Assembly: GCA_964016885.1 (NCBI GenBank)
Contig: OZ024745.1
Coordinates: 28,582,001-28,646,000 of the forward strand
Source: Eledone cirrhosa
Taxonomy: Eukaryota
Direction of reading: 5' to 3'
DNA length: 64,000 nt
In this document: one piece after another, positions 3,451 through 63,542 of the stretch
Position numbering within the stretch: position 1 is the stretch's first letter
Layout: each line of letters starts with the position of its first letter
The notes under the pieces: generated by a model
Told to the model about the DNA's origin: nothing
The model's input: only the letters and a program-made list of their open reading frames with translations
Database searches by the model: none
Program-made: the position numbers and the translations under genes

Positions 3451-3839
3451 CCTATTAGCCTGTTGCTTATAAATAACAGGCTGCTAGTGAGTGGGGAGAA
3501 GGAGAAGATGGAAGGGGTTTAAACCTGTCTGTAAAACCTATCTTTATTTTTTTATTTTTTTATCTTTACCTTTTTATATATATTTTATTTATATAAATGA
3601 CTTTTAGTGACGGTCAGTAAATAATAAATGAACGCTAAATGACCATCTACCCCCCCGCCCATCTCCCCGCCTTCTTCATTCCCTTTCACGACTCACTGGA
3701 CTTTTAAGCAGTAGCATCAACCATCTCTCAGATGTCACCATTAGTCTTCTTTATATCCTTCCCCACCCCCGAGATATATATGTATTTTTTACGACCCCCT
3801 AATTCTAGCCTTATTGCCAATGCATGGCACGGCACTCTT

Positions 3840-5312: not shown

Positions 5313-5324
5313 GTTAGTTTTATA

Positions 5325-5515
5325 TTGGTTTCTGATTTAGGCACAAGGCCAACAATTTTGCGGGAGGGGCAAATCGATTAAATCGACCTCAGTGCATTAC
5401 TGATATTTTTATTTTATCGACCCCGTAAAGATGAAAGCTCAGCAGGATTTCAACTCAGATCGTAAAGGGCCGTAACTCTATGCCATAAAGCATGTTGTCC
5501 GACACTCCACCGATT
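5325..5515 (-). mobile_element. SINE, family 2 (GGGGTCGATAAAATAAAGTACCAG body)
   Basis: Reverse complement of the copy at 17267-17460; other copies near 15885, 16110, 17990, 21970, 23790, 29490, 36480-37130, 43630, 44860, 49465, 62200 and 62500. Confidence 0.8.
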
Positions 5516-13116: not shown

Positions 13117-13559
13117 AAATATATAAAGGTAGCTGTGGGAGGTAGTTGATAGAAGGGGGGGGGGGATGAATGAGAGTGACACGAGGTGAGGGTGGGTAGG
13201 TGTTTGAAGTAGAGTGGAGTGAGGGCAGGACTGTATAGTGTAGTGGGGAGATGTAGAAGGTATGATGTTGGGAATGAGCTCTCTTAGCTGTTTGTGTCAT
13301 ATAATTTACAAACAGCCAGCCAAGGGAGACAACACGAATGCACCATTGGCATATATTGGCATAAATCGGGTCGCTGGTGACCTACTGAATGACGTTCACA
13401 AACAAATCGTTATGATTTTTTAATTTGGTTCTTAGTTAAAGAAACAGAATCTTTCTGCCATTTCTTAGTGAAGTTGCTCTCCCGCCTGAACCAAAGCAAC
13501 AAATTCCATTTTTTACACTTTTCTGTCCATCATCACGTCTTTATCTTTGTATTTATTTT

Positions 13560-13669
13560 GCAAGAATCTTCATGTGAAATCCTGTTTTCAAATATATATT
13601 GTTATACTTTTGGAGGGTTATACTGCCAATAAAAACACACACATTGGTGCTTGTGTTTTTATTGGCAGT
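13560..13669 (-). mobile_element. Penelope-like 3' end fragment (family B) with a fold-back hairpin
   Basis: TTGTTATACTTTTGGAGGGTTAT matches the 54661 terminus; hairpin ACTGCCAATAAAAACACA/TGTGTTTTTATTGGCAGT. Confidence 0.65.
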
Positions 13670-13703: not shown

Positions 13704-13868
13704 TAAGTTTATCGTGGGTTCAATCGGGGGTAACCACAGTAAGTAAGGTACTCAATACAAAGCAGAGTATAAATATTTAATATAGAAAGGCTTCTACAGG
13801 ACTAGAACTGATGATTTCTCCCGAAGGAAACAGTTCTAGTCCTGTAGAAGCCTTTCTATATTAAATAT
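13704..13868. mobile_element. Hammerhead-containing insert (family A) with an inverted arm, in (TA)n
   Basis: 38-bp inverted arms 13773-13810 / 13831-13868; homologous to 29945, 49325, 56369 and 58042. Confidence 0.85.
13808..13851 (+). ncRNA. Type I hammerhead core (family A); 5' arm of stem I replaced
   Basis: CUGAUGA-(U)UUC UCCC GAA(G)-GAAA-CAG ttctagtc CUG-UA; GUA at 13844-13846. Confidence 0.7.
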
Positions 13869-13875
13869 ATATACA

Positions 13876-13934
<59 letters not shown>

Positions 13935-14100: not shown

Positions 14101-14565
14101 TTCATCAGAGCCACGTACTCCTCTACTTTCCCCGAAAATTATAGAAGTTGGATTCTTATAGAATTCCAGTAATAATCAGGAGCTGATTATACAGAGCGAT
14201 TGCCGGTCCAGCAAAAATTAGGTATTAGGATTGGTGCTCTGAAATAGCGATGTATATATTTGGCAATATACCGTATGTTTAATTAAAAAACATGATTATT
14301 ACTGGAATTCTATAACAATCCAGCTTCTATAATTTTCAGCGAAAGTAGAGGAGGTGCGTGGCTCTGATGAATGCTAACCAGCGTGAAACAGACTGTCAGC
14401 TTCTCTCCCTTCTTTCGCCGAAAAGAAGTAAGTGACATAGTCGCTACTTTAAAACTGATAGCGTATGGTCTTCTAAATGTTTTTAATTAAACATACGGTA
14501 TATTGCCAGATATACTATACATACATTCGTGTATACATCGCTATTTCAGAGCACCAATCCTAATA

Positions 14566-14763: not shown

Positions 14764-15045
14764 GGTCATACTACCAATAAACACGTATGGACTAGTTGAG
14801 CTTCACTTCAGTGATTATTATTAATCAGGCAGCTTATCCATCTATTGGTTGGTTAATCAACCAATCACCTCATTAATTAATTAATTATAAAGCTCTTTCA
14901 TCAGACAGACTGTTTACCATATCACTGTTAAATGAGAAAAATTGAAATAGAATTCAACTCCCACACACATTTGGTGGCATGACCCTCCCAAAGTATAATG
15001 ATATATGTTTGAACACACGATTTCACATCAAGAATCCTGTAAAGC
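14764..15045. mobile_element. Decayed Penelope-like family B insert with inverted parts
   Basis: CATGACCCTCCCAAAGTATAATGATA..TTTCACATCAAGAATC matches the reverse complement of ~54620-54690; AAGCTCTTTC remnant. Confidence 0.6.
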
Positions 15046-17205: not shown

Positions 17206-17266
17206 CTTTGCTGCAAAATTGCTGGCTTTGTGTCTATATAAGAAACCATTATTTTATCAATTTTCA

Positions 17267-17460
17267 AGGGCGGTGATTTGGCAGTATCGGTAGACAGTCG
17301 GACGCCATGTTTAGCAGCATAGAGTTACGGCCCTTTACGGTCTGAGTTCAAATCCCGCCGAAATTAACTTTGCCTTTCATCCTTTCGGGGTCGATATAAT
17401 AAAGTACCAGTAATGCACTGGGATAATTGCTGACCTTGTGCCAAAAGTAGAAACAATTAT
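17267..17460 (+). mobile_element. SINE, family 2 (near full length)
   Basis: TGGCAGTATCGG A-box-like, GAGTTCAAATCCC B-box, GGGGTCGAT..GTACCAG body. Confidence 0.8.
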
Positions 17461-17715
17461 TTTATTAATTTTCACCAATAGAAAGTCGGTTTCTAACATA
17501 GAAACAAGACTCGTTCATTGGAATTTAGACACCTACTAGGTAAATACGTGTGTGTGTGTGCGCGCGCAGGTATGGGTGTTGTTGCATGTGTGGATCTGTA
17601 TGTTTTGAGTTATATGTGTACACATGTATGTTTCTGTATCTATACATCAGTTATTATATGTTGGATTTCTGAAATGTTTGACATATTTTTACAGTTCGAT
17701 TAATTGACTGTACTT

Positions 17716-19640: not shown

Positions 19641-19761
19641 ATAATAATAAATTTAATATTTAATATATATTATATAAATTTAATATATAATATATAATAA
19701 TAAATATATATATATATATATAATATATAAGAACAAAAGATGGTTAAAAGAGTTCCATGTA

Positions 19762-19826
19762 TTTTATTATGCGCATTTCAAAAACAAATATCATCATGCA
19801 ATAATATTTGTTTTCATCAGATAAAA
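19762..19826 (-). ncRNA. Type I hammerhead ribozyme (left palindrome arm)
   Basis: Reverse complement of 19949-20015; core intact. Confidence 0.82.
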
Positions 19827-19948
19827 CAGGAAGACATGATATGAAGGTTAAAAAACACTTGTGGATAGTGCAGTTTTAAATCAACATATGTTGATTTAAA
19901 ACTGCACTATCCACAAGTGTTATTTAACCTTCATATCATGTCTTCCTG

Positions 19949-20015
19949 TTTTATCTGATGAAAACACAAATATTATTGCATGATGATATTTGTTTTTGAA
20001 ATGCGCATAATAAAA
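19949..20015 (+). ncRNA. Type I hammerhead ribozyme (right palindrome arm)
   Basis: UUUUAU-CUGAUGA-long stem II (ACAAAUAUUAU/AUGAUAUUUGU)-GAAA-UGCGCA-UA-AUAAAA; palindromic stem III; AUA site ending at 20009. Confidence 0.85.
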
Positions 20016-20138
20016 TACATGGAACTCTTTTAACCATCTTTTGTTCTTATATATTATGTATACTCCAGTCCTACAAACTGTAGAGTGCTTCTTATCCGAT
20101 ATCTGCATTGCTTTATTGTACTACAATAAAACTCACCT

Positions 20139-20207
<69 letters not shown>

Positions 20208-20640
20208 ATAAAATGTAGTTTGCTTAAAGCATTGTGTATAATATATAATGTGGAAAGTGATATATGTAAGAAGGCTAAACAATGTAAAATGGACGGTATG
20301 ATGAAGTCAACGAAAGAGTTAGTTGCCTTGTAATGCTTTTTTTTTTTGTTTTGTTTTTGTTATTTCTTTCGTCCTAATATTTCGTGACTTGAAATTCTCT
20401 TCGACGGAGAAAGTTTATTTTTCTGAGTGTTCTATACTCTGAAACGGGGATTTGAAGTCCCGAAATATTACATATATCAATTTTCACATTCTTGACTTTT
20501 TTTTTTAATTGAGTTTGAATTATTTCCCCATATCTTACGTTAAATATTTTCCATCTTGACGTTATAGTCACTTATATATTATGAAATACTGTTGGCTTCT
20601 TGCTCACATTAATTTCTCTATTTTCATATATATATGTGTG

Positions 20641-21349: not shown

Positions 21350-23420
<2,071 letters not shown>

Positions 23421-23922
23421 CAATTTACACTGCACTTATAATTGTCATGTATTACTCACAAACAATCGAACACATGCACACACTCACACCTATATCACAT
23501 CATACTCTATTAGCTTTTCACCAGCTAAACCATATTTCAACGCTCGACATGAGTCGCTTCCTCTTGACTAAGTAGTTGACATCATTTTCTAGTTACGTCC
23601 CCTTTTCACACGGGATCTCACCACAAAATCTCGTTCAGACATTTTGTTTCTGTGCCTGATGAAAAGATAGCGAACGTCTCCAGCATATGCATTCCGAGCC
23701 GTGCTTTTACAGTCTGCATTTGTACTTCACGTCTATGCCTTGAAACCTAAGGAAGCATGATACATATTTCGTGTATGAATCTTAAGAAATGTTTCTACTT
23801 TTGGCACAAGGCCAGCAATTTGAAGGGCAGGAGTAAGTCGATGAAATCGACCCCGGTGCGTTACTGGTGTTTTACTTTATTGACACTCGAAAGATGGAAG
23901 GCAAAGTTGATCTCGATAGGAT

Positions 23923-24014
<92 letters not shown>

Positions 24015-25025
24015 GAATAAGCAAACTATGAAAGCACTGAATTTGTGTAAAGAATTGTTGAATATAGATATGTATTACACTGACAGTGGTGTCAGTTAGG
24101 TACAATTGTTTCTCTGGCTGTTTATTTCAGATTTTCACTGTGACAGGTTCCAGATCTTCAGCCTATTTAAACTTCATTGATAATTATGTTCTTTCCCTTC
24201 AAGCGTGAAAGAGTGCCAAAAGAGCAAGAACTATACAGGGAGTGGGTGTTGTAGCTATACAGAATGGTAAAATAAAAGAAGTGAGGTAATTTGGTAGGTA
24301 AATACAGTCTTTGGAAATAAAAGGGCGCAAACTGTTAGAGAAGAAAAAGAAGCAATATTAATGACTGGATATGTAGAGGAAGGTCCATGTGGGTAATATC
24401 AGTGGTTTGCGCGTGATATCCGTAGCACTTAGAATTCTTTCTTTTAATCCGGCAAGAGCAAGAATTTCCAGAGACTGTACCCAAAATACACATTATTTCA
24501 TAGCTGTTATTATTGAAGCTACATGATAATTACCAAACCACTGCACCCAAGTATGACTGAGCATGGATTCTTGGAGAAAGAATGTACTCTCTGAGCCCAA
24601 ATAATAGGGAGGTTGGAATAAGTGGAGGGAGGGGTTGGAAAATCGATAATTTTTTTCTCGCTTGTCTCCTTGATTTTTTAAAACCAGAATTAATCGTTAA
24701 GTTTACATATTGAGACCCAAACCATCCTATTATTTTGTAACGTATAAGATTTCTTGTAATGTCCTTCTTTGTCATGTATAATTTACTTTAGGAAATTAAT
24801 CATCATAAGAATGCTACCATTTAAAATAAAATTTAGCCGGAGATAGATCAGCAAAATTTAATAAGCGGTGTGTGGGGGAAGTCTGCAAAACAATCTTAAG
24901 ATCCAAAGGATGAATGATAGCATAAGGGACGAGGGAAATTTCCTTTTCTTTACAATCTTGCCTCCGGAAAGGTGGCCAGTCAAAAATAAACTTGAAATTA
25001 AGAAGAGAGAAACATACATACATAC

Positions 25026-25436
25026 ATGGTGGCTGCCAACTCGTTTTCGAGTACGGCCACTACTTTATATCCATGTAGGAGAACCCCTACCGATGCGCTG
25101 AACGAGTGTGACTTTTTAGTCCAGCCAGCGACTTGAAAACTCTGGTACAAACACTACACTTGTGACAATTACTGACACACAGTGCTGGGCCCATGGTACC
25201 ATGTGACGACAAGGGCAGAGAGATCTCCAGATATAAAGCAATGCCTGTGCCGTGAAGCTTTTATAGTGAGCAAAGGCACTGCACAAAGCCAGTCCCACTC
25301 TTTTAACCAAGATGATATTTACCAAAAAGAAGAACAAGTCAACATCATTGGATACCATCAGGGTTACAGGTGTTATATCAGAGTTTTCCTTCTTCTAGAA
25401 TTTTGCCTTGACAAAGGCTAAGGGGTCATCTCTCCC
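25026..25436 (-). mobile_element. 5'-truncated copy of a bipartite RTE-derived element
   Basis: Near-identical reverse complement of 30606-31016; flanked by (ATAC)n. Confidence 0.85.
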
Positions 25437-27427: not shown

Positions 27428-27628
27428 TTTATTGTACACAAACATTTCATATACGAGGGTCAGCTGAAAGGTTCATAGGCTAACTATGAAGGATTGATGT
27501 TAGAGCTGTGAAATCTTGCATGCATTAATTTCAACTCTTCTTATTAATAACTGCATTGTTTCTTTCTATGGGCTACGTTAAAAAGTAAACTTCATTTGGT
27601 CATTCCATGAGAGTATCTTGGTCAGCCA
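27428..27628 (+). mobile_element. Mariner-like MITE fragment with flank
   Basis: TA-CGAGGGTCAGCTGAAAGGTTCATAGGCT terminus; inverted homologue at 31088-31286. Confidence 0.65.
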
Positions 27629-28329
27629 TGGAGAAATATAAGACCCTCATAGAACTGGACATAAAAGGAATTTGCCCATTATACAGGAGCAAATCATGGA
27701 ATAGTTTAGATAGAGCTAGACATAAGATAGGGAAAGCCACCTCATGGTACGACAACCAGAGATACCAGAGTGTCATGTTTGTGGACGCTACCCCTGGAGG
27801 GAAATTAGCTAACCAGTGTAGAAAGGCCCTGAGAAAGACCCACTTAAAGATTAAGGTGGTAGAAAAGCCAGGAACCACCATAAAATCCCTGATCATCAAA
27901 ACCTACCCTTTTAAGAAAACCCACTGTACTAATAGGAAATATATCATATGTAAGGTAAACCCCCGGATAAACTGTAAAACTAGAAACGTAGTCTATAGCA
28001 TAAAATGTACAGAGGGTACTTGCAGAAACATGACAACAACATACATAGGCGAGACAGCTCGTAGCATAGGTGAAAGGATAGACCAACACTGGGGGGAACT
28101 AAAAGGACGAAAAAACGGTTCAGTACTATACGAACATGCCAGACAACAACACGACGGTAACATAGACAACATAGAAATTAGAATAATATCTAAACATAGG
28201 AATGACCCAGCAGATAGGCAAATCAGAGAGGCCAGTGAAATAGAACTTAGAAGGTCAAGGCTAAACAGAAAAAATGAATGGAATAACAACAACACCCAAA
28301 CAAACAACACTGACCTAAGAGAAGTATAA
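27628..28329 (+). pseudogene. Penelope-like ORF C-terminus: Cys/His motifs and GIY-YIG endonuclease; RT missing
   Basis: CKTRNVVYSIKC..C..YIGETARSIGERIDQH..SVLYEH..H..RQIREASEI..LNRKNEW; the first 7 codons of the tracked ORF come from the adjacent MITE. Confidence 0.88.
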
Positions 28330-28800
28330 ATAAATAAATAAATAAATACACAAGCACAATAACAACAAACACATATAAACACACTAGTAAAGATAGAATA
28401 CATTAACCAATACACAGTCACCCAATCACGAACACACATCAAACAAAACACTATACACACACGCAAACGCATGCGCAAAGAAGACAAAATAAAATAAAAT
28501 AAACAAATAAATAAATATATAAACAGACTAAATAAAAATGGCGTAGAAAATACAATGCAACGGGAGGAAACAGATGTGCAACGAAAGAACTTTGATAAAC
28601 TATAAATATGTGTTTGTGTCTATATTGTATCTGTATTTTTGACCGTTGGTCAGTTAATGGCAACATTGAGGACCGAATAAATTAGATTACCGATATAAAA
28701 GACACAGAAGCGAACAGCGAAAACCAACCAAACAGTGAGTGTGTTCTGTTATTAATTCTGGCAATATTACACAAATATGACCCTTCCCCAAGTATACCAA
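27628..28800 (+). mobile_element. 5'-truncated Penelope-like element (linker, GIY-YIG endonuclease, 3' UTR) ending in (TA)n
   Basis: GIY-YIG ORF, then a 3' UTR with a decayed hammerhead half (CGAAAGAACTTTGA at ~28582) and terminus ATGACCCTTCCCCAAGTATACCAA-(TA)n. Confidence 0.88.
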
Positions 28801-29335
28801 TATATATATATATATATATATAATTTCTTGTAAATAAACATTCACTTCCATCCTGACGTCACTAGCCCCGTTTTTTCCTCATGTGCTTTTTCATAAATAC
28901 ACATGAAGGCGAACTAGCCACTTTTAGAATTCCCTTTTTCGGATTATACTACTGTGAGAGCCCTGGTTTCTGTTGAGCTCTGCTGATGAATGAAATCCAA
29001 CTGTGACCATCTCCACTGAAAGTTTTCATGAAATAGTCTTTTAAGACTATACAGAGCATTTGATGTTATTCCAAATTGAAGGATAAGTGTTTCAAACTTT
29101 ATTTTATCATGAGTTAAAGGTCTATAGATTTTTCCCTGGATTTTACTAAATTCTGTGGATGAATTTATATCCTGATTCTCTTTTGAGATGAGTTTGAGTT
29201 ATTTTTCCTAAATCTTTCGTTAACTACTTTTCCCATCTTGACGTTATAGTCGCATATATGTTATAGAATGCCGTTAGCTTCTTGCTAAAACAATCTCTAT
29301 ACCTCTCATTTATATATATATATATATATATATAT

Positions 29336-29414: not shown

Positions 29415-29944
29415 TATATATATATATATATATATCTGACATGGCTTTAAAAATGAGGGTTGTTTGCCTAGTTGCAAACGAATCGAATGTTATCGAGGTT
29501 AACTTTGCGTTTCATCCTTACGGGGTCGATAAAATAAAGTACCAGTAATACACTGGGATAATTGCTGGCCTTGTGTCAAAAGTAGAAACAATTATTAATA
29601 TTCGAAAAACTCAGATTGCACTTATATATATATGTATATAGTTGTACGCATAAGGTAAACAAAGAAGACCGCGTGTTGTCCTTCTCCAACGCAACTTTTA
29701 CCCCTCGGAACCTCCTCCCCGTCCTGTTGATGGATGTGAAATCCAAAATATAGGGACTATTAAATCGCTTCCAAGGTAACTTTATCTCGTGTTATTTTTT
29801 ATACTTTCCCTGCGTTCTTTTACGCTCTCTACATTTCTGTCTACGCTTCCTCCTACCCCTCCCTCTTTTAATACCAACTGATTTTGTTACCCGGAGATTT
29901 ACCCATCTACATTGTTGAGGCTTCCAAAACGACTATTATATATA

Positions 29945-30003
29945 TCCTGATGATTTCTAATGAATGAAACAGTTCTAGTCCTGTAGAATCTCATCTATAT
30001 TAA

Positions 30004-30006
<3 letters not shown>
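29945..30006 (+). ncRNA. Family A hammerhead core inserted between (TA)n runs
   Basis: CUGAUGA 29947-29953, GAAA 29966-29969, CAG/CUG stem III, GUA 29983-29985; stem I truncated. Confidence 0.7.
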
Positions 30007-30033
<27 letters not shown>

Positions 30034-30037
<4 letters not shown>

Positions 30038-30203
30038 CAAAGGAAATGTGGTAAGGGACCAGATGGACCATAACGCACCAGAGTACTCAATACTTAGGGT
30101 AGTAGAGTGGGGAATAGGAAAAAGTATGCCGTTTCGACGGCTATTTCTGGACTCCAGAAATAGCCGTCGAAACGGCTTGAGCTCTGCCGTCGGGGTCATA
30201 CTT

Positions 30204-30208
<5 letters not shown>
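30034..30208. mobile_element. Family C insert: inverted 3' tail, 23-bp-arm hairpin and 3' half of a hammerhead
   Basis: CCGTTTCGACGGCTATTTCTGGA c TCCAGAAATAGCCGTCGAAACGG; GAAA-CGGC..GCCG-UC; GAAAAAGTATG/CATACTTTTTC; relative at ~17900-17975. Confidence 0.75.
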
Positions 30209-30250
<42 letters not shown>

Positions 30251-30406: not shown

Positions 30407-31012
30407 GTCAGGTCACCAGTTGGTGCTACTGGAAACATGTATCCCAGTACAACCTGTCTCATGGTCGGGTCGCTGGCGACTAAACTGGCAACTCCACCAA
30501 GGTTTCTTGGTGAGGAGGGTGACTTTGGACATCCTTCAGGACTAAAAACAAAACCTGTCAAAGGGCAAAGGAGCTCTTAAGAGTCAATGGCCATCCACAA
30601 TCACCGGGAGAGATGACCCCTTAGCCTTTGTCAAGGCAGAATTCTAGGAGAAGGAAAACTCTGATATAACACCTGTAACCCTGATGGTATCCAATGATGT
30701 TGACTTATTCTTCTTTTTGGTAAATATCATCTTGGTTAAAAGAGTGGGACTGGCTTTGTGCAGTGCCTTTGCACACTATAAAAGCTTCACGGCACAGGCA
30801 TTGATTTATATCTGGAGATCTCTCTGGACTTGTCATCACATGGTACCATGGGCCCAGCACTATGTGTCAGTAATTGTCACAAGTGTAGTGTTTGTAGCAG
30901 AGTTTTCAAGTCGCTGGCTGGACTAAAAAGTCACACTCGTTCAGCGCATCGGTAGGGGTTCTCCTACATGGATATAAAGTAGTGGCCGTACTCGAAAACG
31001 AGTTGGCAGCCA

Positions 31013-31016
<4 letters not shown>
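30407..31016 (+). mobile_element. Bipartite non-autonomous RTE-derived element (5' UTR-like part plus 3' end)
   Basis: CTAGGAGAAGGAAAACTCTGA RTE-5'UTR-like motif; terminal C2H2 remnant CSVCSRVFKSLAGLKSHTRSAHR* at 30884-30955; microsatellite tail. Confidence 0.75.
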
Positions 31017-31073
<57 letters not shown>

Positions 31074-34462: not shown

Positions 34463-36241
34463 ATGATGAATTGGTCGTGCTTTTTATTCGTGGCCCTGTC
34501 TGTGGTGGTAGGCCTGGGTGTAGTGACGGCCTTTACATCAACGTCTGACCGCCAACACGAGCGATGTGAACGTATTGCCATCCCTATGTGTATGAACATG
34601 AGGTACAACATGACGAAGATGCCTAACTTATTGGGGCATACTAACCAGAAAGATGCGGCCATACAGGTGCACGAGTTCCTACCCCTTGTTCAACTGGGTT
34701 GTTCCAAGTTACTACGATTCTTCCTCTGTTCTTTCTACGCCCCGATGTGTACAGAGATGGTCAACGCCGTGTTGGTGGTGTCCGCATGTAGATCCATGTG
34801 TCTGGAGGTGAAATCTAAGTGTGAACCTGTCCTTAAAAATCTAATGTTTCCCTGGCCAGAATCGCTTGACTGTCAACAACTCCCTGAGCACTCCAATAAG
34901 AAACGTCTGTGTATGGAGGCCCCGAATGTCACAGATGAACCAGATATGCAACCAGAAACCATAAATGCTGAATGGTGGAACATTGTCCAGTCTTTTAAAG
35001 AGAAAACCAAAGATGGCAACCACAGGAGATTACCTTATGGACGTTACGGTGGACACAACCATCATGACATGGCTTCTACACGTTCTTTATGTCCGGACAG
35101 ATTTGTCTATGTTGACAAACACGGAGGTCTTAATTATTCTTGTGCTCCACGGTGCGATATTGATGTTTACTTCAAACAAGAAGATAAAAGATTCGCCAAA
35201 ATTTGGCTACTAGTTTGGGCAACTTTCTGTTGTATTTCAACCACAATAACTGTCCTCACCTTTGCAATAGACACTTCACGGTTTAAATATCCCGAAAGAC
35301 CTATTATATTCCTGTCAATGTGTTATGCTGTCTACTCTGGAGCTTACATGATCCGAGGCATTACAGGACCTAATTCTATATCGTGTGACCGCCTCCCGAA
35401 CGGCACGGAGTTCTTAATACAAGAAGGACTGGAGAGCACTTGGTGTATTATAGTATTTTTAATACTTTACTACTTCGGCATGGCCAGTGCTATTTGGTGG
35501 GTGATACTCACCCTCACATGGTACCTGGCTGCAGGACGTAAATGGGTACAAGAAGCTATTGAATCACTCAGTAGTTATTTCCATGTGGCCGCCTGGGCAA
35601 TTCCGGCCGTGAAAACTATTATAATTCTTACAATGCGTCGGGTTGATGGAGACGAATTAACGGGTCTCTGTTTTGTAGGTAACCAAGACATCGTTGCCCT
35701 CACAGGGTTTGTTATCACACCTTTAGTTATATATCTTATCGTTGGAACAATTTTTATATTTGCTGGTTTCTTTGCTATGTTTAAAATCCGCCGGAATTTA
35801 AAACAAGACGGTACAAACATTCGCAAACTTGAGAAACTTATGGCAAAAATTGGAATATTTTCCGTATTGTACACACTACCGGCGACATGTGTTATTGGAT
35901 GTTATTTTTACGAACGGATTAACTTCAACAATTGGAAGACAGAAGCAATGCGCCGCCGATGCCGGAGTACACGGAATGGCCAGGAGGATTGCTCTCTGTC
36001 ACAATCTATACCAACTATCGAAGTATACATGTTGAAAATCTTCATGTCTTTAATCGTTGGAATTACCAGTGGAATGTGGGTTTGGAGTTATAAGACATTC
36101 AATTCATGGAAGCAGTTCTTTTCCAGCCGTTTTTCACGTCGGAAACATATTTATCACGGAAATTACCACCAAGCACCTGTTTGTCTTATGAAGACACGGG
36201 GTCAAAAAGTTATCCCCAAAAACGTGGGAACGAGAGTATGA
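34463..36241 (+). CDS. fzd9/10: Frizzled-9/10-class Wnt receptor, coding sequence in a single exon, 592 aa
   Basis: Signal peptide; CRD CERIAIPMC..YNMTKMPNLLGHTNQKDAAIQVHEF; 7 TM with RFKYPERPIIFLSMCY and IQEGLEST; KTxxxW motif (KTFNSW); C-terminal PDZ-type T-R-V. Confidence 0.96.
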   Translation: MMNWSCFLFVALSVVVGLGVVTAFTSTSDRQHERCERIAIPMCMNMRYNMTKMPNLLGHTNQKDAAIQVHEFLPLVQLGCSKLLRFFLCSFYAPMCTEMVNAVLVVSACRSMCLEVKSKCEPVLKNLMFPWPESLDCQQLPEHSNKKRLCMEAPNVTDEPDMQPETINAEWWNIVQSFKEKTKDGNHRRLPYGRYGGHNHHDMASTRSLCPDRFVYVDKHGGLNYSCAPRCDIDVYFKQEDKRFAKIWLLVWATFCCISTTITVLTFAIDTSRFKYPERPIIFLSMCYAVYSGAYMIRGITGPNSISCDRLPNGTEFLIQEGLESTWCIIVFLILYYFGMASAIWWVILTLTWYLAAGRKWVQEAIESLSSYFHVAAWAIPAVKTIIILTMRRVDGDELTGLCFVGNQDIVALTGFVITPLVIYLIVGTIFIFAGFFAMFKIRRNLKQDGTNIRKLEKLMAKIGIFSVLYTLPATCVIGCYFYERINFNNWKTEAMRRRCRSTRNGQEDCSLSQSIPTIEVYMLKIFMSLIVGITSGMWVWSYKTFNSWKQFFSSRFSRRKHIYHGNYHQAPVCLMKTRGQKVIPKNVGTRV

Positions 36242-36602
36242 AAACAAAAAAATATATATATTGATTTCTAGTCTAATTCGATTTTATATTGATTTTTTAA
36301 AAATATTGTTTGTTTTTTTGTATCTATTGCTAAACAACACAAACAGAAAAAAATGTTTAAAATTTATTTTATTTTTCTAAAATACATGAAAAAAAAAAAC
36401 TATTTTATTACAGTTTGCCAACTTCCAGTTCTGTTGTTCAATATATTATTATTATTATTATTATTATTCACGAGTCATTCAGTTACAGTCTTTTATGTTC
36501 TGAGTTCAAATCCCACCGAAGTTAGCTTTGCTTTTCATCCTTACAGGGTCGATAAAATAAAGTACCAGTAATGCACTGGGGTTGATTTAATCGAACCCCC
36601 CC

Positions 36603-36634
<32 letters not shown>

Positions 36635-37166
36635 ATTATTGGCTTTGTGCCTAAATCAGAAACCATTATTAAATCCCACCGAGGTTAATTTTGCCTTCTA
36701 TCCCTATGGGGTCGATAAAATAAAGTACCAGTAATGCATTGGTGTCGATTTAATCGACTGTCCTTTCCTTTTAAATTGCTGGCCTTGTGCCAAAAGTTGA
36801 AAGAATTATTAGTATTAGTATATGGTTTCTGATTTAGGCACAAGGCCAGCAAAAATTTAAAGGGATGTGGAAAGTGGATTGAATCGATCCAGTATGTTAC
36901 TGGTACTTCATTTTATCGACCCCCCATAAGGATAAAAGGCAAAACTAACCTCGGTGGGATTTGAACTCAGAACGTAAGGGTCGTTCTGAATTCAATTCCC
37001 GCCGAGGCAACTTTGCCACCATCCCTCCTAGGTCGATAAACTAAAGTGCCAGTGAATTACTGGAGTTGTTTAATCGATTTTTCCCCTTCCCTTGAAATTA
37101 TTGGCCTTGTGTCAATTGTAGTGACAATTATTATTATTGTTTGTTTTGACACACACACACACACAT

Positions 37167-44660: not shown

Positions 44661-45684
44661 TACATACATACATACATTCTCATCCTCCGCTTGCCATGCT
44701 GGTATGGCTTGTGCTGGACTGGACTTTTTGAAGTTTTACTATTAGATACCCTACTTAACACCAATCGTTTTAGCAACATCTTTCGACACACGGCAGTGGG
44801 GAGGTACGTTGAGACCCATACAATATATAATACGCCATTATTATTATCATCATCATAATCCCGCCGAGGTTAACTTTGCCTTGCCATTATTATTATCATC
44901 ATCATAATCCCGCCGAGGTTAACTTTGCCTTTTATCCTTACGGGGTCGATAAAATAAAGTACCAGTAATACACTGGGTAATTGCTGGCCTTGTGCCAAAA
45001 GTAGAAACAATTATTATCATCATCATTCAATGACCGTTTCCTTGCTAGCAAGGGTTTGCAGCAATATATCAGTTGGGGAATTTCATTTCCACTCTAATGG
45101 AAGCCTAAAATAGAACTATGATCATTTAAAACCGTCAATCGGTATTTAGGAATCTTATTTCTTACGTCAGTCATATTGTAGATATCATTTCATATCCATC
45201 TTTGCTTTCAATTTTACATCTGATTTTTGTCTTCATTTCAGTGATTCAGTGATTTGCCTATACTCTTACACGCACACTCACACATTATATTCATGCATAT
45301 ATTTTTCTCACTGGCATAGACTGGACAAGTCGTCTTGGTCAGTGATTAGACGGGTTCAGATAACCATGGCTTGCTCATACTTTCCCTTTTGGCATGGTTT
45401 CTTCGTCAGAATGCTCTTCCTAATGCCTACATCTTTACAGGGTGTAGTGGGTGCACTTTATTGTAGTATCTGCACTACCACTTTACAGAATGTACGAGGT
45501 GCATTTTAACTCAGTACCAGCAATACCATTTGTAGACTGCAGTGGATGCTATTTATCGAGGCATCAATTCTACTACTTTACAGTGTACTGAGTGCATGTT
45601 ATCGTCGTGTCCTCAACAGGCCAGAATGTAACACAATATGTGACCAGTATATGACCTATCTAGCCAATATATGCCTATGTCTCC

Positions 45685-49324: not shown

Positions 49325-49443
49325 TTTATCCCGGGTTCAATCGGGGGTAACCACAGTAAGGTACTCAATACAAAGCAGAGTATTGATTATTTCTCCCAAA
49401 TGAAACAGTTCTACTCCTCTAGAAGCCTTTCTATATTAAATAT
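49325..49443. mobile_element. Family A insert: inverted tail plus decayed hammerhead
   Basis: GGGTTCAATCGGGGGTAACCACAG..GTACTCAATAC then TGATTATTTCTCCCAAATGAAACAGTTCT. Confidence 0.75.
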
Positions 49444-50697
49444 ATATATATATGTGTATGTGTGTTGATTTCTAATTTAAGCACAAAACCAACAAATTAT
49501 AGGAAGACAGGACAGAGTTATATCAACTTCAATACTTGACTGCTGGATTATATTTTATCGATTCCTGAATTTAGGGAGCAAAGTTAACCTCAGCGGGATT
49601 TGAAATCTGAATGTCAAGAGACAGAATACCGCAATTGTGTTTTATCTGATGGCCTACTAATTCTATGGTGTGGTTATGTGGTGTGGTGACATGTATGTGT
49701 ATGTGTGTGTGGTGTAGTGACGTATGAGTGTGTCTGCTTCAATTAAATCTTGGCAGGATCGTTAAAGCCACCCAAAATCACAAACCTCTAGAAGTGAAGT
49801 AACTTGCCTAAGTGGAGTTCACAATAGTAAGATCATGAGTTCGAATTCCGAGCGGTTCGCTGTGACCTTGAACCAAACACTTATTTCACTTTGCTCCTGT
49901 CCACTTAGCTGGGGGGAAAGTTTTATAAGGTTGAATCTCCCTGAGAACAACGCTAAAAGTACACGTGTTTGTGGAACACTTAACTATTTACACTATAATG
50001 AAAAATGGAATGTACTTGAAATTTCGAAGGGCCAGCCATATCATTTAGAATCTCCCTGAGATGCACGTGCCTGTAGAATGCTCAGCGATTTGCACGCTAA
50101 TTACACGAGCTGGCTGTTCAAACAGATGGAACTTTCTTCGTCGTTGTAACCGACGGAGATCCCCCCCCCCTTCACCCTCTATAAGGATGGACTCTTTCAT
50201 TGGATAATGGAATTTAGCGTTCATTTTATTTGTTGTTGATGTGGTGGTGATAGTGGGGAGTCAAAATAAAACAAACAGGAATATCACAGCTGGAATGCCT
50301 TTGATCTTATCTGTGTGTCTCTGTCTGTTTGACTGTCTGTGTATGTCTGTCAGTGTATCTGACTGTTTGTCAGTCAGTCTGTCTGACTATCTGTCTGTCT
50401 GTCTTTCTTCTCTGTATATCTGACTATCATATAGGCGGCCTGAGTGGCTATACTACAACTATTTCTACTCTCTACACACTATTACTAAAGCTACCACTAC
50501 CACTTGTACCGCCGCCGCCACCATCTGTACCTCCACTCTACCATCGTCATCATCACCACCATCTATACTTCCACCATAACATAACCAACATCACAGTACT
50601 ACGTACATACCTCCCACTTTACATTTGATTAATTCCCCCCATTATCTCTTCCCCTCTCTCTCTTCTAATCTTTGTTTTCTAACCAAATTTACTGTAG

Positions 50698-50740
<43 letters not shown>

Positions 50741-50750
50741 AACACACATA

Positions 50751-51340
50751 CATTATAATAAATGTTCGGTAAACCCATACGTACATATATATATGTGTGC
50801 ATGTATGTATATATATACATACTACTGTACGTCTGTATACATATATGTATGTACGTGTACATACTTACATTTAAGTAACAGCCGTACTAAGAGTGAGAAA
50901 TGAAATTTCGTTTCATTATTTCCATTTATTGTTTTCGGTACGCCCGGCCGACTAACTCACTCGATACGCAAATTAGGCTGCTCAGCCGTTAATATGCATA
51001 AGGAAAGTATATACTTTCAGACGTTCAACCATCTGGCAGGAAGGTATACGATGCTGACGATAGCTAATAAGCTTGAAACTAGTACATCGTTCCTTTGTCA
51101 GTGTTGAACAAAAGGGCAACGATGGTTGCTAAACACTGTACGGCGTAATTCGGGCTGTTTGTTTGTTTACAAACAAACCGAGCATTATAATAAATGTTCG
51201 GCAAATCCATACGTACATATATATATATATATGTGTGCATGTATGTATATATATATATACATACTACTGTATGTCTGTATACATTTAAGTACCAGCCGCA
51301 CTAAGAGTGAGAAATGAAATTTCGTTTCATTCTTTTCCAT
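50751..51340 (+). mobile_element. Retrozyme/pLTR-like unit: ~160-bp direct repeats flanking a hammerhead
   Basis: 50751-50925 repeated at 51183-51340; (TA)n on both sides. Confidence 0.78.
51048..51090 (+). ncRNA. Minimal type I hammerhead ribozyme
   Basis: ACGAUG-CUGACGA-uAGCU aaua AGCUu-GAAA-CUAG-UA-CAUCGU; 6-bp stem I; palindromic ACUAGU; cleavage predicted after A51084. Confidence 0.88.
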
Positions 51341-51919
51341 ATATATATATTTATATATATGTATACACACACACACACAGTTACACTTATACATACATAC
51401 AGGCATGTGTGTAGAAGTGGCGAAGGTGGTGTTTGTTGGTGTGGGGCATTTTTTCAATTTACAGGGAAATTCGTATTTCTGGCGGGTTTACATGTCTACA
51501 TATTTATATACACATTGGTGCAGTCTCGGTTACCCACTCTGTATATATACGGATTGGCTGCTTGGTACATACATATATATATGAGTATGGGTATGTATGT
51601 ATGCGTGCATGTTTGTACGAGTGTAATCTCTGTAGGTGTAAATGTATGTGTGTCTGTTGGTGTAAGAATATTTGTGTGTATACATATATCATCTTCCTCA
51701 TCATTTAATGATGATGATATATGTGTGTGTAGCCCCCATTTTGTCTGGCTGTTCTTTCAAACCTGATACCCTCATTAATCATTGTATCGCATTCTCTGAA
51801 GCTGTCTCCACCCTCCTTACCCCACTTTATCCCCTTGACCTCTTTACACACAGACACATACATACATATAGATATATATATATATGTATATATATAGACA
51901 TATATATATATATAGACAT

Positions 51920-54609: not shown

Positions 54610-54798
54610 TTTCTGAATTTCTTTGGCAAGATTCTTTATCTGAAAACGTGTGTTGAACCGATATTGTTATACTTTGGGAGGGTCATGTTGCCAATAAGAA
54701 ACACACGCACCAGTTGCTTTCACTTCAATTTATTATAATAAATTTATAAATTTCCCGTTGGTTGGTTGGTTCCACAACCAGATGGTTGTTTGTATATT

Positions 54799-54841
54799 GT
54801 CAAAGTTCTTTCGTCACACATTCTGTGACCTCTTCAGTGAC
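54799..54841 (-). ncRNA. Hammerhead candidate (left arm, family B)
   Basis: Reverse complement of 54973-55015. Confidence 0.7.
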
Positions 54842-54972
54842 TGGGGATTCTTTTCTTTGTTTTTGTGCCTCTCCTTTGTTCTGTTCTACGCCATCTTGTT
54901 TCTCAAGAAGAGAAACAAGATGGTGTAGGACAGAACAAAGGAGAGGCACAAAAACAAAGAAAAGAATCCCCA

Positions 54973-55015
54973 GTCACTGAAGAGGTCACAGAATGTGTGA
55001 CGAAAGAACTTTGAC
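54973..55015 (+). ncRNA. Hammerhead candidate (right arm, family B)
   Basis: GUCA-CUGAAGA-gGUCACA gaaug UGUGAC-GAAA-GAAC-UU-UGAC; CUU site; minimal stem III. Confidence 0.7.
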
Positions 55016-55238
55016 AATATACAAACAACCATCTGGTTGTGGAACCAACCAACCAACGGGAAATTTATAAATTTATTATAATAAATTGAAGTGAAAGTAA
55101 CTGGTGCGTGTGTTTCTTATTGGCAACATGACCCTCCCAAAGTATAACAATATATATATATAGAGAGAGAGAGAGATGTTTTTATGTATGTATATATATG
55201 TATACATTTATGTATGTGTATATGTATTTATGTATGTT

Positions 55239-55788: not shown

Positions 55789-56368
55789 TTAAATGAATCC
55801 ACAAGTGCCTTACGTTTGGCCACTAACTCCGAGCCAGAATCGAACGTAGCAGTCATCTACAGAGATAAAACCTAATTAAGTAACCAAGGTCATGAAAATG
55901 AAAAACATTTGAAATTTACAATTCACACATATGTTGGTTTAGATGGCCTTTTCCGAGGTTGCGTCTCGTAGGAGGTTTCTTGGGTGTTTAATGATAGGGC
56001 CCCAGTCCTATTATGTTGTTGTTACAGTTCAAACCGATGTAGGTTTAGCTGCTCTCATATGAGGTTGTATCTCAAAGCAAGTTCTTGGGTGATTTAATGA
56101 AACCCAGTTTGACCGTGTTACAGTTCACAACTATGAAGGTTACATTATATCTCACAAAAGGTTTAGTTTTTTTATAGTATGGAGCCCAGGCCTATCATGT
56201 TGTTACACCTACTATGAGATGTAGCAACATCTCATGGGAGGTTCTTAGGTACCTGGAGTTGCGACCAATAGATAGTATAAGCAATTGGAAAGACCAACGG
56301 AAACATTGTTTCCCCGGTCCGATTTTACGTAAGTCGATCGACAAATTTATTTATATATATATATATAT

Positions 56369-56495
56369 TGATGATTTCTAAAGAATGAAACAGTTCTAGT
56401 CCTGTAGAATCTCATCTATATTAAAACTTTTATACTCTGCAATGTATTGAGTACCTTACTTACTGTGGTTACCTCCGATTCAACCCGGAATAACG
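56369..56495 (+). mobile_element. Family A sense monomer: hammerhead core (first C lost) plus ~90-nt tail
   Basis: TGATGATTTC..GAAACAGTTCTAGTCCTGTA..CCGATTCAACCCGGAATAAC between (TA)n runs. Confidence 0.8.
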
Positions 56496-58041: not shown

Positions 58042-58250
58042 AAGTTTATCCCAGGTTCAATCGAGGGTAACCACAATAAGTAAAGTACTCAATACATAGC
58101 AGAGTATAAATATTTAATATAGAAATGGCTTCAACGGGACCAGAACTGTTTCATTCGGGAGAAATCATCAGGAAGCCCTGATGATCAGAGCTTCCTGATA
58201 ATTTCTCCCGAATGAAACAGTTCTGGTCCCGTTGAAGCCATTTCTATATT
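58042..58250. mobile_element. Family A head-to-head palindrome with two hammerheads
   Basis: Minus 58128-58176 GCUUC-CUGAUGA..GAAA..GUU-GAAGC; plus 58190-58238 with a CUGAUAA variant. Confidence 0.85.
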
Positions 58251-58252
58251 AT

Positions 58253-59436
58253 ACAAGCTGGCCGTCCGGCTAGGTATACCGGCATTTTATCTTTTCAAGA
58301 ACCCCCCTCCACTCCTGTGCAAAGATACCGCACGCCCTCTCAAGTCTGCAACGTTGGGTTGGGGGTTAACGTGCTCTGATGTTGGGTTTGAATAGTTTTT
58401 AGGATTCCCCAGTTCAGCAGCCAGTACGTTAAAGAAAATTGATAGTTACAACAATAAAGGCTGAACAGAGAACACATTTTTTAACAAACTTTACAATAAT
58501 TTGTACAACCAAAATGGAAATTCCAAGTAACAGAAAATACATAAATTACATTGTTAGAGCCTCAGAGTATACAATATTTTTTGTTCGGCCCTCCGGAGCA
58601 AAGATGAAGAGATTATTTGGCGAGCTCACCCTGGAGCATCCTACATACAATTGACCATGGGAGAAGCATGGTTTTCCCAGTTGAGGGCCAGCCACTTTTA
58701 GGGTTTGACCCTGAGCGTTGTTGATGGTAATCGCGAAGCTTAGTCTTATTGGAAACTGAAGTCGCTTAACATGTCCTGTAACTGGCGAATGATTTCAAGT
58801 CTGGTTCCTGGGATGGCCCGATGGCGACGTATCGCTTGTGAATCTGCATCTCCAATGAAGTAGATTTGCAAAACCTTGTGGTCTTCGTCAGTCAGAGGTA
58901 GGAGACTTCCAATCGTGTAGTACACTTGGCCCTGTACTTTAAATGGGGGCATGTATCCGTGCTTTCGTGAAATAAATAGGTTTTTGTTTTTGTGTATGCA
59001 AAAATATATGTACACGAATATATATATTAAAATAACAGATTAAAGTTTAAGTAAAGAATCGCTGCTTTCACCCTTAACAGGATCTTCTGAAACTAAAAAA
59101 ATCAATCTGTGAACGCAGAAGTAAATATTTCGAAAAACGTTATCTAATGCAGACATACAGAGACATATTATAAGGGCGCGACGTCATAGCTATGTCTCTC
59201 TATCTAAAAATACAGACTAAGAAAAAGTGAGGAATGTCATATAACCGGAAGTGTTGACATTTGAAATTTTAAAGAAGTGAATATTTAAATAATGTCTTTA
59301 ATCTTTTAACAAAATTCAGTAGACAAAAATAGCCTCACTTTTTTACTTGGAAAAAGTTACATCTTTGGTGCTGTTTGGTCCAGTCGTTTGGCGAAAAGTT
59401 TGTTACATACATACGGCCGTTAGCTTTATATTATAT
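58253..59436 (-). mobile_element. Internally deleted Helitron with RepHel fragments
   Basis: FKVQGQVYYTIGSLLP..LQIYFIG (N-terminal region) abutting the PIF1 end FAITINNAQGQTLKVAG..CFSHGQLYVGCSRV..TKNIVYSEAL; 3' CCGG hairpin plus CTTG; 5' TATAATATAAAG. Confidence 0.85.
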
Positions 59437-61236: not shown

Positions 61237-61711
61237 CAGACAAACATACATACATGCATACATACGTCATAATACATAGATACATACATACATATACAAA
61301 CACGCACATAGTAATTCGTACAAGATATAAAGATATAAGGTTACGTTGTATAGCTGTACCACATCACCACCACAACAACATTCCCTCCCCCCTCACCTCA
61401 TTCTGGTGTTCTCTCCTCACCCCTCTCTTTCTCTCTAGTAGACTTCAAACGATTCTGTGTAGCCTCACTTCTTTGATGTTCTCTGGCGGTAAAATGTAGA
61501 AGTTGTTGGTGGTAGTCTTTTTTTTTCTTTTTGCTGTTATTGTTGTTGTTGTAAGTCATTCCAGGCTTAATTGGAAACAGCGCAGGCCTTTGCTGGTACC
61601 TCCACCCTCCCCAGCTATCAAACCCCACCACTTCTTTCTGCTATTATTACTTTATTCTCCATCGTCCCCCTCTTCTCTTGTACATATATACATACATGCA
61701 TGTTTTATATA

Positions 61712-61756
<45 letters not shown>

Positions 61757-61780
61757 GAAAAATGAAAACAAATAAGACAG

Positions 61781-62035
61781 ATACTTTGGGAGGGTCATGT
61801 TTGTTAATTAAAACACACGCACCAGTAAAGTTTCACTTCGGTTTTATTATTAGTCTGATAAATAATCTATACATTCCTAGGTTAGTTTAATGACTGCATG
61901 GTTATTTAATAGTCAAAGCTCTTTCGTAAAAAAAAACAACACATGAAATGAAGTAAATAAAACAAAATGAAAACGAAGGGGAGCAAGAATAGTCATTGAG
62001 AAGGTCACAAGGTATGACGAAAGAGCTTTGAAATT
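61781..62035. mobile_element. Decayed family B insert with inverted halves
   Basis: ATACTTTGGGAGGGTCATG..GTCAAAGCTCTTTCGT, then GTCATTGAGAAGGTCACAAGGTATGACGAAAGAGCTTTGA. Confidence 0.72.
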
Positions 62036-63542
62036 AAAATAAATGTGGGTGTGATACAACTTGCTCTAGACTTTGACTCTCTTACACTGTTTTCTTCGTC
62101 CTACGTCACCATCAGCACCACAACCATCATCATCACCGTTGTAATGGGCCAGACCATTGCCAGCATTTGTCTCACTCTGAAGCATTATGTTTATATTTGG
62201 AAGGGTGGTGGATTGGTAGTATCGGTAGAGGGTCAGACGCCATGCTTTGCAGCAAAGAGTTACGGCCCTTTATGGTCTGAGTTCAAATCCCCCCGAGGTT
62301 AATTTAGCTTTTCATCCTTACGGGGTCGATAAAATTAAGTACCAGTAATACACTGGGATAATTGCTGGTCTTGTGCCAAATGTAGAAACAATTGTTTATA
62401 TTTGGCAGAATTGGTAGAGCATCGCCCTAGTGTCAATATATAGACTCTAACCCTCATTTGAAATATGTTTAGCTTTGTCATTATCATAAAACAACGAATT
62501 GGCAAAGTTGTTAGAATATTGGGTAAAATACTTTGTGGTTTTCGTTCTGATATTCTGCGCCATAAGTTCTAATCCCACTGAAGCCGACTTTACCGTTTAT
62601 CTGTCGTGGTCGATAAAATACCAGTCTTATACTGAGTAAATTCTTCCACTATTTTTTCTTTCTCACTACATATATGTGTGTGTCGTTTGAAAGCCGAGAT
62701 TAACGCCGCCCTCTGTCGTTTGACATTAGTAAGAACGGCAGTACAGTGTAAATATCACATATCAAACATATATTACATGTGTAATGTGTTTCAAGCTACA
62801 TCTGTGTGTGTGATATACATACATATATACATATGTGCATGCGTGTATAAATGTATATATTTATGGATATTTATATATATGCCCACATACATTATATATA
62901 TATATATATACACGCAACCTCTAACGCTATTTATCTTAAGTGTTTATGTTCAACGTTATATACAGTTCACTACTGAATCAGCTATTCGTAATACCTATAT
63001 ATATTCACGTGTACGTGTATATATACTCAGATAAGGAGTACCGTTAGCTATGTCAATCATTTGAACCACTTGCCAAGAAATTATCCTCCATATAGTGGTC
63101 GACCGACCTGCTAAAATTAACAGCCAAATTCTTTCAAATCACACACCTTAAATGCATTTATCAGTGTATCATGACAGGAAAGTCACGGCTGGAACGCAAT
63201 TTATCATAGCTCAAGTAATCAGGCCTGGTAAGAGCTACAGAACCAACCATTGAACATCATCAAATCTGTTTTTCTCACAGAGAATCTACTTCTCTCCATT
63301 TCCTGGTGACGTTTTCCATTCCAAGAAACATCGTTTTGCCCACCGCTCACAATTTGCCCCAATTTCTGTCTTGTCTCAGACTTGCCTTACCATCTGCTTT
63401 GCCCACCACCCACAATTTACCTCGCATATATTGCTCCAGACTTTGCCACTACACAAAGCTTGCCCCCGCCTTCTGTATTGCCCTACCATGGCCAATAATT
63501 TTCCACTGCCATCTATCTTGCCAGATTACCCCTTTTGTTTTT

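Follow-up and report, generated by a model that had tools for sequence, protein, structure and literature searches.

A hammerhead motif between partial direct repeats in the genome of Eledone cirrhosa: a probable retrozyme-type retrocopy

Introduction

Retrozymes bearing hammerhead ribozymes (HHRs) and the pseudo-LTRs of Penelope-like elements (PLEs) have been well described in animals, a mussel included, and the class considered here is not a new one. Non-LTR retrozymes are units of 150-450 bp with a GC content below 50% and a type I HHR; their multimers are cleaved, the products are circularised by RtcB, and mobilisation by PLEs has been proposed (PMC7229834). Further traits expected of the class are expression as linear and circular monomer RNA, many family copies that include tandem arrays, and the lack of an LTR-type primer-binding site or polypurine tract. 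These units have been related to PLE pseudo-LTRs. An active retrozyme locus is considered to need at least two consecutive HHR-bearing units, with solo copies representing family monomers and offspring (bioRxiv 10.64898/2026.07.22.740005). The canonical HHR core has been defined as C3 U4 G5 A6 N7 G8 A9, G12 A13 A14, A15.1-U16.1 and H17 (PMC3088659), and canonical animal type I HHRs have a helix I of 6 bp, a helix II of 4 bp and a helix III of 1-2 bp with a palindromic loop (PMC4209133). In metazoan PLEs the usual form is the min-HHR, in which an unpaired nucleotide lies between A9 and the G10.1-C11.1 pair, helix II has 7-8 bp and helix I has 4-5 bp (PMC4209133). A dimer mechanism has been reported for newt and axolotl HHRs (PMC6155905, PMC7229834). 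The axolotl HHR_Amex1 and HHR_Amex2 both work better as dimers, and the latter is functional, with 22% cleavage in 1 h as a monomer and more as a dimer (PMC7229834). Among nine predicted retrozyme dimers from Xenopus, one was cleaved in vitro (bioRxiv 10.64898/2026.07.22.740005).

Partial tandems are the typical arrangement of PLEs, and inverted, truncated structures ending at a microsatellite have also been described as a PLE insertion arrangement (PMC8557442). The idea that PLE insertions may exceed one unit has already been published (PMC4209133). Reverse transcription by the PLE protein, which nicks AT-rich DNA, begins at a site inside the RNA and does not require HHR cleavage in vitro; for an anole PLE, the main substrate was RNA that had not been cleaved (PMC11167929). 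In cephalopods, PLEs constitute 6.83% of the O. vulgaris genome, distributed over 190 families (PMC13282606), and Octopus Naiad PLEs have been listed with a (TA)n preference (Craig 2021 supplement). No description of a cephalopod retrozyme was found in the literature searched, some supplements lying outside that search, and the word "hammerhead" is absent from the available portions of two cephalopod repeat surveys (PMC13282606, PMC8967140).

Here, an HHR-bearing element is described from 64,000 nucleotides of microsatellite-rich animal DNA from Eledone cirrhosa (contig OZ024745.1, positions 28,582,001 to 28,646,000), a stretch referred to below as the window. The element is probably a 5'-truncated, non-autonomous retrocopy of retrozyme type, mobilised by a PLE.

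The hammerhead motif

A type I HHR occupies positions 51048-51090 on the plus strand, as detected by sequence reading, a descriptor scan and folding. Stem I is formed by ACGAUG (51048-51053) and CAUCGU (51085-51090) through six Watson-Crick pairs, enclosing the core segments CUGACGA (51054-51060) and GAAA (51075-51078). On the helix III side lie the palindrome ACUAGU (51078-51083), which permits either one pair with a CUAG loop or two pairs with a 2-nt loop, and a GUA triplet with a predicted cut after A51084. Helix II (51062-51065/51070-51073) is closed by the loop AAUA. Every required position of the canonical core definition is occupied as expected, and the helix lengths (6, 4 and 1-2 bp, with a small palindromic loop) are those of canonical animal type I HHRs. 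Helix II has at its base a U.U mismatch (U51061/U51074) where the G10.1-C11.1 pair, typical and not universal, is usual; U51061 may represent decay of this copy. Stem I extends over 51023-51109 (plus strand) to a total of 6+4+6+7 = 23 predicted pairs; the 6-bp stem is adjoined by a UAU/U internal loop, and loop 2 ends in A. Both are in place for a putative loop 1-loop 2 tertiary contact, which would be formed by U1.7 and the last A of loop 2.

A preliminary description had presented this motif as a textbook minimal hammerhead with a perfect 6-bp stem I and a palindromic ACUAGU. Stem and palindrome can be read directly. The word "textbook" does not quite apply, given the U.U mismatch at the helix II base and a stem I that runs on to 23 bp, and "minimal" is wrong, as the extra nucleotide before 10.1, the G10.1-C11.1 pair and a long helix II of 7-8 bp are all absent. 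One min-HHR trait, the palindromic 15.2-16.2 with loop 3, is present as ACUAGU.

The motif lies far beyond chance expectation. A strict descriptor, composed after the motif had been seen, gave no match in 1000 shuffles of the whole window, while a looser one (any match, stem I of at least six pairs) was matched in 2 of 1000 shuffles, compared with five matches in the real window. These shuffles were local and dinucleotide-preserving, in 500-nt blocks, on both strands and over the full 64 kb. Rfam gave no gathering-level match anywhere in the window, and no hammerhead family occurs among its 82 weak matches at 50500-51600; since Rfam does not score the motif, the assignment rests on the descriptor. 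Matches to Rfam microRNA families were rejected as TA/TG hairpin artefacts, far under their thresholds. Taken alone, the 43-nt motif folds no better than shuffles (z -1.5).

Predicted folding of the hammerhead

In a nearest-neighbour energy model, with tertiary contacts left out of all figures, the minimum-energy monomer of 51023-51109 reaches -27.2 kcal/mol and pairs the core CUG with the UAG of the palindrome at a probability of 0.88. The active monomer, with a one-pair helix III, is placed at -20.4 kcal/mol, 6.8 kcal/mol above this inactive minimum. A strand-swapped double-hammerhead dimer with a 6-bp ACUAGU duplex is calculated at -57.6 kcal/mol, compared with -54.4 kcal/mol for two monomers and -57.8 kcal/mol for the cofold minimum. 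On these energies the monomer is predicted to fold into an inactive form and the dimer to form an active helix III. The figures agree with the dimer mechanism of the newt and axolotl HHRs, with cleavage at this locus predicted from folding alone. The low proportion of Xenopus dimers cleaved in vitro has been counted against the preferred reading of the element, as has the use of mainly uncleaved RNA by the anole PLE.

Architecture of the element

The element comprises 590 nt (50751-51340) in the order A-B-A', that is, two direct repeats around a unique segment, and lies between TA tracts. To its left, a (TA)n microsatellite (50698-50738; tandem repeats finder TRF and sequence) is followed by a short CA-rich stretch to 50750 and is the likely insertion target. 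Repeat copy 1 (A, 50751-50926, plus strand) has 176 nt, with weak similarity that may reach back to 50737, and its start is likely a 5'-truncated end because it falls inside the junction hairpin described below. A 28-nt segment found in copy 1 only (50838-50865, plus strand) is bordered by short TACAT repeats and is predicted to fold as the 3' arm of a long purine-pyrimidine hairpin. The unique segment B (50927-51182, plus strand), of 256 nt, is non-coding, is predicted to be structured and holds the HHR. At the B/A' junction a 9-bp hairpin (51178-51201, plus strand) exposes AAUAAA (51189-51194) at its loop, 105 nt past the cut site. Repeat copy 2 (A', 51183-51340, plus strand) has 158 nt and ends beside TA repeats, 256 nt past the cut site. 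By analogy with the mechanism described for PLEs (PMC11167929), position 51340 is likely to mark the start of reverse transcription. The right flank (51341-51379) consists in its sequence of a TA and then a CA microsatellite, and no target-site duplication is readable in the TA/CA flanks.

The two copies differ by six clear substitutions in 148 aligned positions (approximately 4%) and in length by two TA-tract changes, the 28-nt indel and a single-nucleotide indel close to the 3' end, giving successive offsets of 432, 438, 442 and 414 nt. The repeated unit measures 414-432 nt, with a GC content of 37.5-37.7%, and the element contains 1.37-1.43 such units. The longest reading frame from a Met has 53 codons, and tblastn with six PLE-like proteins at an E value of 1 gave no match in the element, none in B included. 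These results bear out the earlier account of about 1.4 units of a monomer near 420 nt, with (TA)n on both sides and no coding capacity. The direct repeats of about 160 bp that it gave also stand, with offsets slightly wider than the 414-432 nt that it reported.

Several other readings of the element were considered and set aside. An ATG occurs near the 3' end of each repeat copy, and an intron followed by this ATG, in the style of a PLE 5' region, found no support: in copy 1 the reading ends after 18 codons, and it could be matched to no PLE N-terminus. Judged by the A- and B-box consensus motifs, a Pol III promoter was rejected: the A- and B-box-like sites, each with one mismatch, occur in reversed order, and the latter is an arm of stem I. 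A tRNA gene search found none. A sigma-70 promoter scan is inapplicable to eukaryotic DNA.

Folding of the unit

The repeat and the unique segment are linked in structure at their junction. The hairpin at 51178-51201 has a predicted energy of -11.5 kcal/mol, reached by one of 2000 shuffles of the A head, and in it the final 5 nt of B find in-register partners in A, extending the 9-bp hairpin with a G.U pair included. Because it contains this G.U pair, the hairpin is not a templated fold-back. Its prediction argues that the repeat belongs to the element and is not a target duplication. In a circular unit, copy 1 interacts with B at a predicted -9.3 kcal/mol, a value reached by one of 150 shuffles, while copy 2 shows no excess interaction with B (38 of 150 shuffles reach it). 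The number of 7-nt stretches in which A and B are complementary does not reach significance (P 0.12).

As a predicted circle, the unit is 63-64% paired, with stems I and II intact at probabilities of 0.6-1.0. None of 100 shuffles folds as well as the plus strand of B alone (z -3.8), and the minus strand equals it (z -4.6), so that this property is not strand-specific; in the background, z values of -3 or below were obtained for 7 of 118 low-repeat strand-windows, each 255 nt long and compared with 15 shuffles. The folding of the whole unit (z -7.1) was discarded as evidence, being inflated by the microsatellite hairpin, and the test on B alone was used instead. A heterogeneous tandem template would gain support if every derived change lay in copy 2; testing the six substitutions one by one gave no significant result in this respect (P 0.21 and 0.15). 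The better pairing of copy 1 with B has been kept as a lead on derived changes in copy 2.

Other hammerheads and features of the window

A relaxed scan revealed seven HHR motifs in the window, compared with a shuffle mean of 0.064 (maximum 2, 500 shuffles), and one further HHR family, with a U.U at the helix II base, occurs beyond these seven. Most HHRs of the window lie inside inverted, truncated structures ending at (TA)n. Among these loci the element at 50751-51340 is the sole direct-repeat case noticed, and it has no significant sequence in common with the others: a comparison on both strands with eight window segments, covering the other HHR families and a PLE fragment, gave no homology beyond one AT-rich 12-mer, shared with the family at 54977. 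No second copy of the element's own family was found in the 64-kb window by BLAST, nhmmer or pattern search, and family-level tests are limited to this window. The element pattern had no exact match in bacterial or archaeal genomes and none in phage records, collections without octopods in which this result carries little weight. The lack of matches for three short motifs in the Craig 2021 supplement likewise carries little weight.

The multi-copy U.U family is found at 13808-13877, 29944-30010, 49380-49442, 56364-56432 and 58110-58257. Its copies are truncated at or inside the core, are often inverted and end about 20 nt past the cut site at (TA)n. It is unrelated to the HHR at 51048 and has U at 10.1 in six of six aligned arms and U at 11.1 in five, giving U.U in five of the six, two of these arms coming from one inverted insertion. 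At 54610-55151, an inverted pair of min-HHR-type pseudo-LTR ends is located between TA tracts, with HHRs at 54837 (minus) and 54977 (plus); the 54977 HHR shows the min-HHR extra nucleotide and the G-C pair, and related 3' ends occur at 13548-13643, about 14978-15000 and 61679-61850.

A PLE-like 3' fragment is present at 27589-28802 (plus strand), in which a GIY-YIG-like endonuclease frame precedes a pseudo-LTR containing a decayed hammerhead; the fragment runs up to (TA)n. The 246-codon frame (27589-28329) shares 36% identity with the C-terminal portion of unnamed proteins of 912-944 residues, which can be read as putative PLE RT-endonucleases from their YVDD, Cys-linker and GIY-YIG-like motifs, the linker being as described for PLEs (PMC8557442). 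Pfam names neither the fragment nor two of its homologues. The region downstream of the frame is homologous to the 54977 HHR family (reached by 1 of 300 shuffles).

Further hammerhead loci include an inverted HHR pair at 19720-20060 (19820 minus, 19955 plus) with a long helix II and a palindromic UGCGCA loop III, between TA tracts. A type I HHR at 28977-29057 (plus strand) has a long, stable helix III, and activity as a monomer is predicted for it; the sequence of its downstream end (29181-29317) is found again at 20502-20635. An inverted structure at 14101-14401 carries a canonical-looking HHR at 14364 (plus strand), and a short inverted element at 30128-30232 has an apparent HHR 3' half and an end before (TA)n that resembles the 51340 end by eye. 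Apart from these loci, the window contains an intronless frizzled-9/10 ORF (34463-36241, plus strand) with 91% identity (536/591) to an Octopus sinensis protein, which identifies the host as an octopod, and a 51-nt minisatellite of 67 copies (1-3452) with open frames of more than 1000 codons on both strands. An abundant short interspersed repeat, likely a SINE, occurs at 5314-5514, 17244-17466, 21969-22170, 23777-23922, 29494-29603, 36481-36984, 44906-45016 and 62180-62402. A 423-nt segment is present twice, in opposite orientation and at 97% identity (25014-25436 and 30606-31028), each copy adjoining a microsatellite.

Proposed history of the element

The starting point of the proposed history is a unit of 414-432 nt, present 1.4 times and lacking an ORF, whose HHR motif caps a predicted stem of 23 bp. 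A single HHR would be held inactive by CUG:UAG pairing, while two copies are predicted to pair their ACUAGU palindromes into a 6-bp helix III. The cut after A51084 would in this manner be gated to multimeric transcripts of tandem donor loci, freeing monomers of about 420 nt, and these may be circularised by a host RtcB-type ligase, as suggested by coral, mussel and axolotl retrozymes. From here we infer mobility through a partner PLE, whose RT/GIY-YIG protein would nick a (TA)n tract, with copying beginning at an internal RNA site equivalent to the 51340 end. Copying would then proceed backwards through the cleavage junction, overrun the point at which it began and halt about 1.4 units on, at 50751. 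The resulting copy, with one HHR, would be unable to free a monomer in cis. It is likely a dead-end offspring, and its repeats have by now diverged by approximately 4%.

A copy of more than one unit implies that the template was continuous across the HHR, as either an uncleaved tandem transcript or a circle would be, and both yield the same 51340-to-50751 product. The tandem transcript is slightly favoured as the probable template because the repeats differ and because the one PLE assayed worked mainly on uncleaved RNA, and drift after insertion explains the A/A' differences equally well. An RNA circle is also a plausible template, slightly less probable. The suggestion, made in the preliminary description, of a more-than-unit copy made by reverse transcription around a circle or along a tandem template is retained as the best reading, given the junction hairpin, the (TA)n flanks and the unit size. 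A more specific proposal is unlikely as a whole, namely that of a cephalopod circRNA retrozyme whose HHR is strictly dimer-gated by its self-blocking fold and whose 1.4-unit insertion records a Penelope RT running more than once round an RNA circle.

Alternative explanations

The alternative that survives best, itself improbable, is that the element is the remnant of an autonomous PLE, with a truncated upstream pseudo-LTR (A), a body almost wholly deleted and a full downstream pseudo-LTR from the HHR to 51340, and was never an independent replicon of about 420 nt. PLEs do make partial tandems with an HHR in the pseudo-LTR (PMC4209133, PMC8557442), and the other HHR loci of the window resemble PLE ends. 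AAUAAA lies 105 nt past the cut site here and 69 nt past it in the 54977 family, the end of which shows homology to the pseudo-LTR of the PLE fragment; this also points in the same direction, as does the ATG near the 3' end of each repeat. However, no protein remnant was detected in B by tblastn with the six PLE-like proteins, copy 1 and B fold as one unit, and the HHR is of the canonical kind, unlike the min-HHRs usual in metazoan PLEs (PMC4209133). Since retrozymes themselves have been reported as derived from pseudo-LTRs (bioRxiv 10.64898/2026.07.22.740005), this explanation differs from a PLE-mobilised retrocopy mainly in degree.

Less probable again is a solo HHR insertion that underwent local duplication at the DNA level, with the TA tracts promoting slippage or unequal crossover, and was later trimmed, in which case the 1.4 units would be uninformative on reverse transcription. 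An A-B-A' order requires both a duplication and a deletion under this scheme, and the geometry is that of the standard PLE partial tandem, with a fixed 3' end at TA and a ragged 5' end; the order of A before B is moreover backed by the pairing of copy 1 with B. These points are set against a microsatellite-rich locus, repeats that differ by slippage-type indels, a window without a second copy and a proposal that PLE termini amplify locally into tandem repeats (bioRxiv 10.64898/2026.07.22.740005).

It is highly improbable that A represents host DNA, present as an unusually long target-site duplication (about 170 bp) around a 256-nt HHR monomer B. Although A has TA-rich tracts, the preferred target, and retrozyme target duplications have been described as larger than 4 bp (PMC7229834), the last 5 nt of B extend a hairpin with A in register, G.U pair included, as only one in 2000 shuffles does, and the 3' end of A' resembles by eye that of the HHR element at 30128-30232. 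A chance hammerhead match in low-complexity DNA is extremely improbable: the lack of an Rfam match, the descriptor composed after the fact and the unexceptional folding of the 43-nt motif are outweighed by the shuffle results, and by the occurrence together of a complete core, a palindrome and a 23-bp extended stem.

Significance

As a probable PLE-mobilised retrocopy, the element would extend retrozymes to octopods, where HHR elements look very dense. If seven intact HHR motifs per 64 kb are typical, octopod genomes would hold on the order of 100,000 hammerheads, and at that density two-repeat insertions should be sufficient to settle the question of circle or tandem from sequence alone. The element would also offer a clean test of whether the PLE machinery copies circles or uncleaved tandem RNA: copying of a circle would leave both repeats of one insertion identical at birth, while copying of a tandem would cause A-versus-A' differences to recur across loci.

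Comparison with known systems

The element would act like a non-LTR retrozyme. With one HHR it is not an active retrozyme locus, with no ORF it is not an autonomous PLE, and its HHR is not a min-HHR. Among non-autonomous PLEs, Chlamydomonas MRC1 and similar elements resemble it in being non-coding and in having pseudo-LTR-like direct repeats produced by partial tandem insertion (PMC8557442). Those elements share 3' similarity with an autonomous partner and are mostly without an HHR, whereas the present element carries an HHR, and the window yielded no partner for it.

The resemblance to PLEs in general (PMC4209133, PMC8557442, PMC11167929) concerns the partial-tandem, pseudo-LTR-like geometry, the ragged 5' end, the (TA)n microsatellite target and a type I HHR with palindromic 15.2-16.2, all of which are found at this locus. 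In contrast to autonomous PLEs, with their telomerase-like RT and GIY-YIG endonuclease, the element has no such ORF, shows no 5' inversion and carries an HHR free of the extra nucleotide before 10.1, the G10.1-C11.1 pair and the long helix II of min-HHRs.

At the level of the ribozyme, the nearest systems are the axolotl and newt satellite 2 hammerheads: the one-pair helix III under a palindromic tetraloop is shared with axolotl HHR_Amex1, and the U.U mismatch at the helix II base with axolotl HHR_Amex2 (PMC7229834). Compared with the axolotl hammerheads, the HHR at 51048-51090 unites both of these weak features and adds a predicted self-blocking CUG:UAG fold.

The closest likeness is to the animal non-LTR retrozymes of coral, the mussel Mytilus galloprovincialis (350-390 bp) and the axolotl (Rtz_331 and Rtz_353) (PMC7229834, bioRxiv 10.64898/2026.07.22.740005). 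From these the present element, which is known from sequence, differs in its 1.4 units, cephalopod host and internal TA/TG microsatellite hairpin. It also differs in its single HHR, where an active retrozyme locus would hold two HHR-bearing units, and for this reason it is placed as a likely solo offspring. As in the known retrozymes, its unit is non-coding, falls within 150-450 bp (414-432 nt) and below 50% GC (37.5-37.7%), and carries a canonical type I HHR; the predicted circle is self-paired (63-64%) with the HHR foldable and its stems spared, and the element co-occurs with PLEs, as those retrozymes do (PMC7229834).
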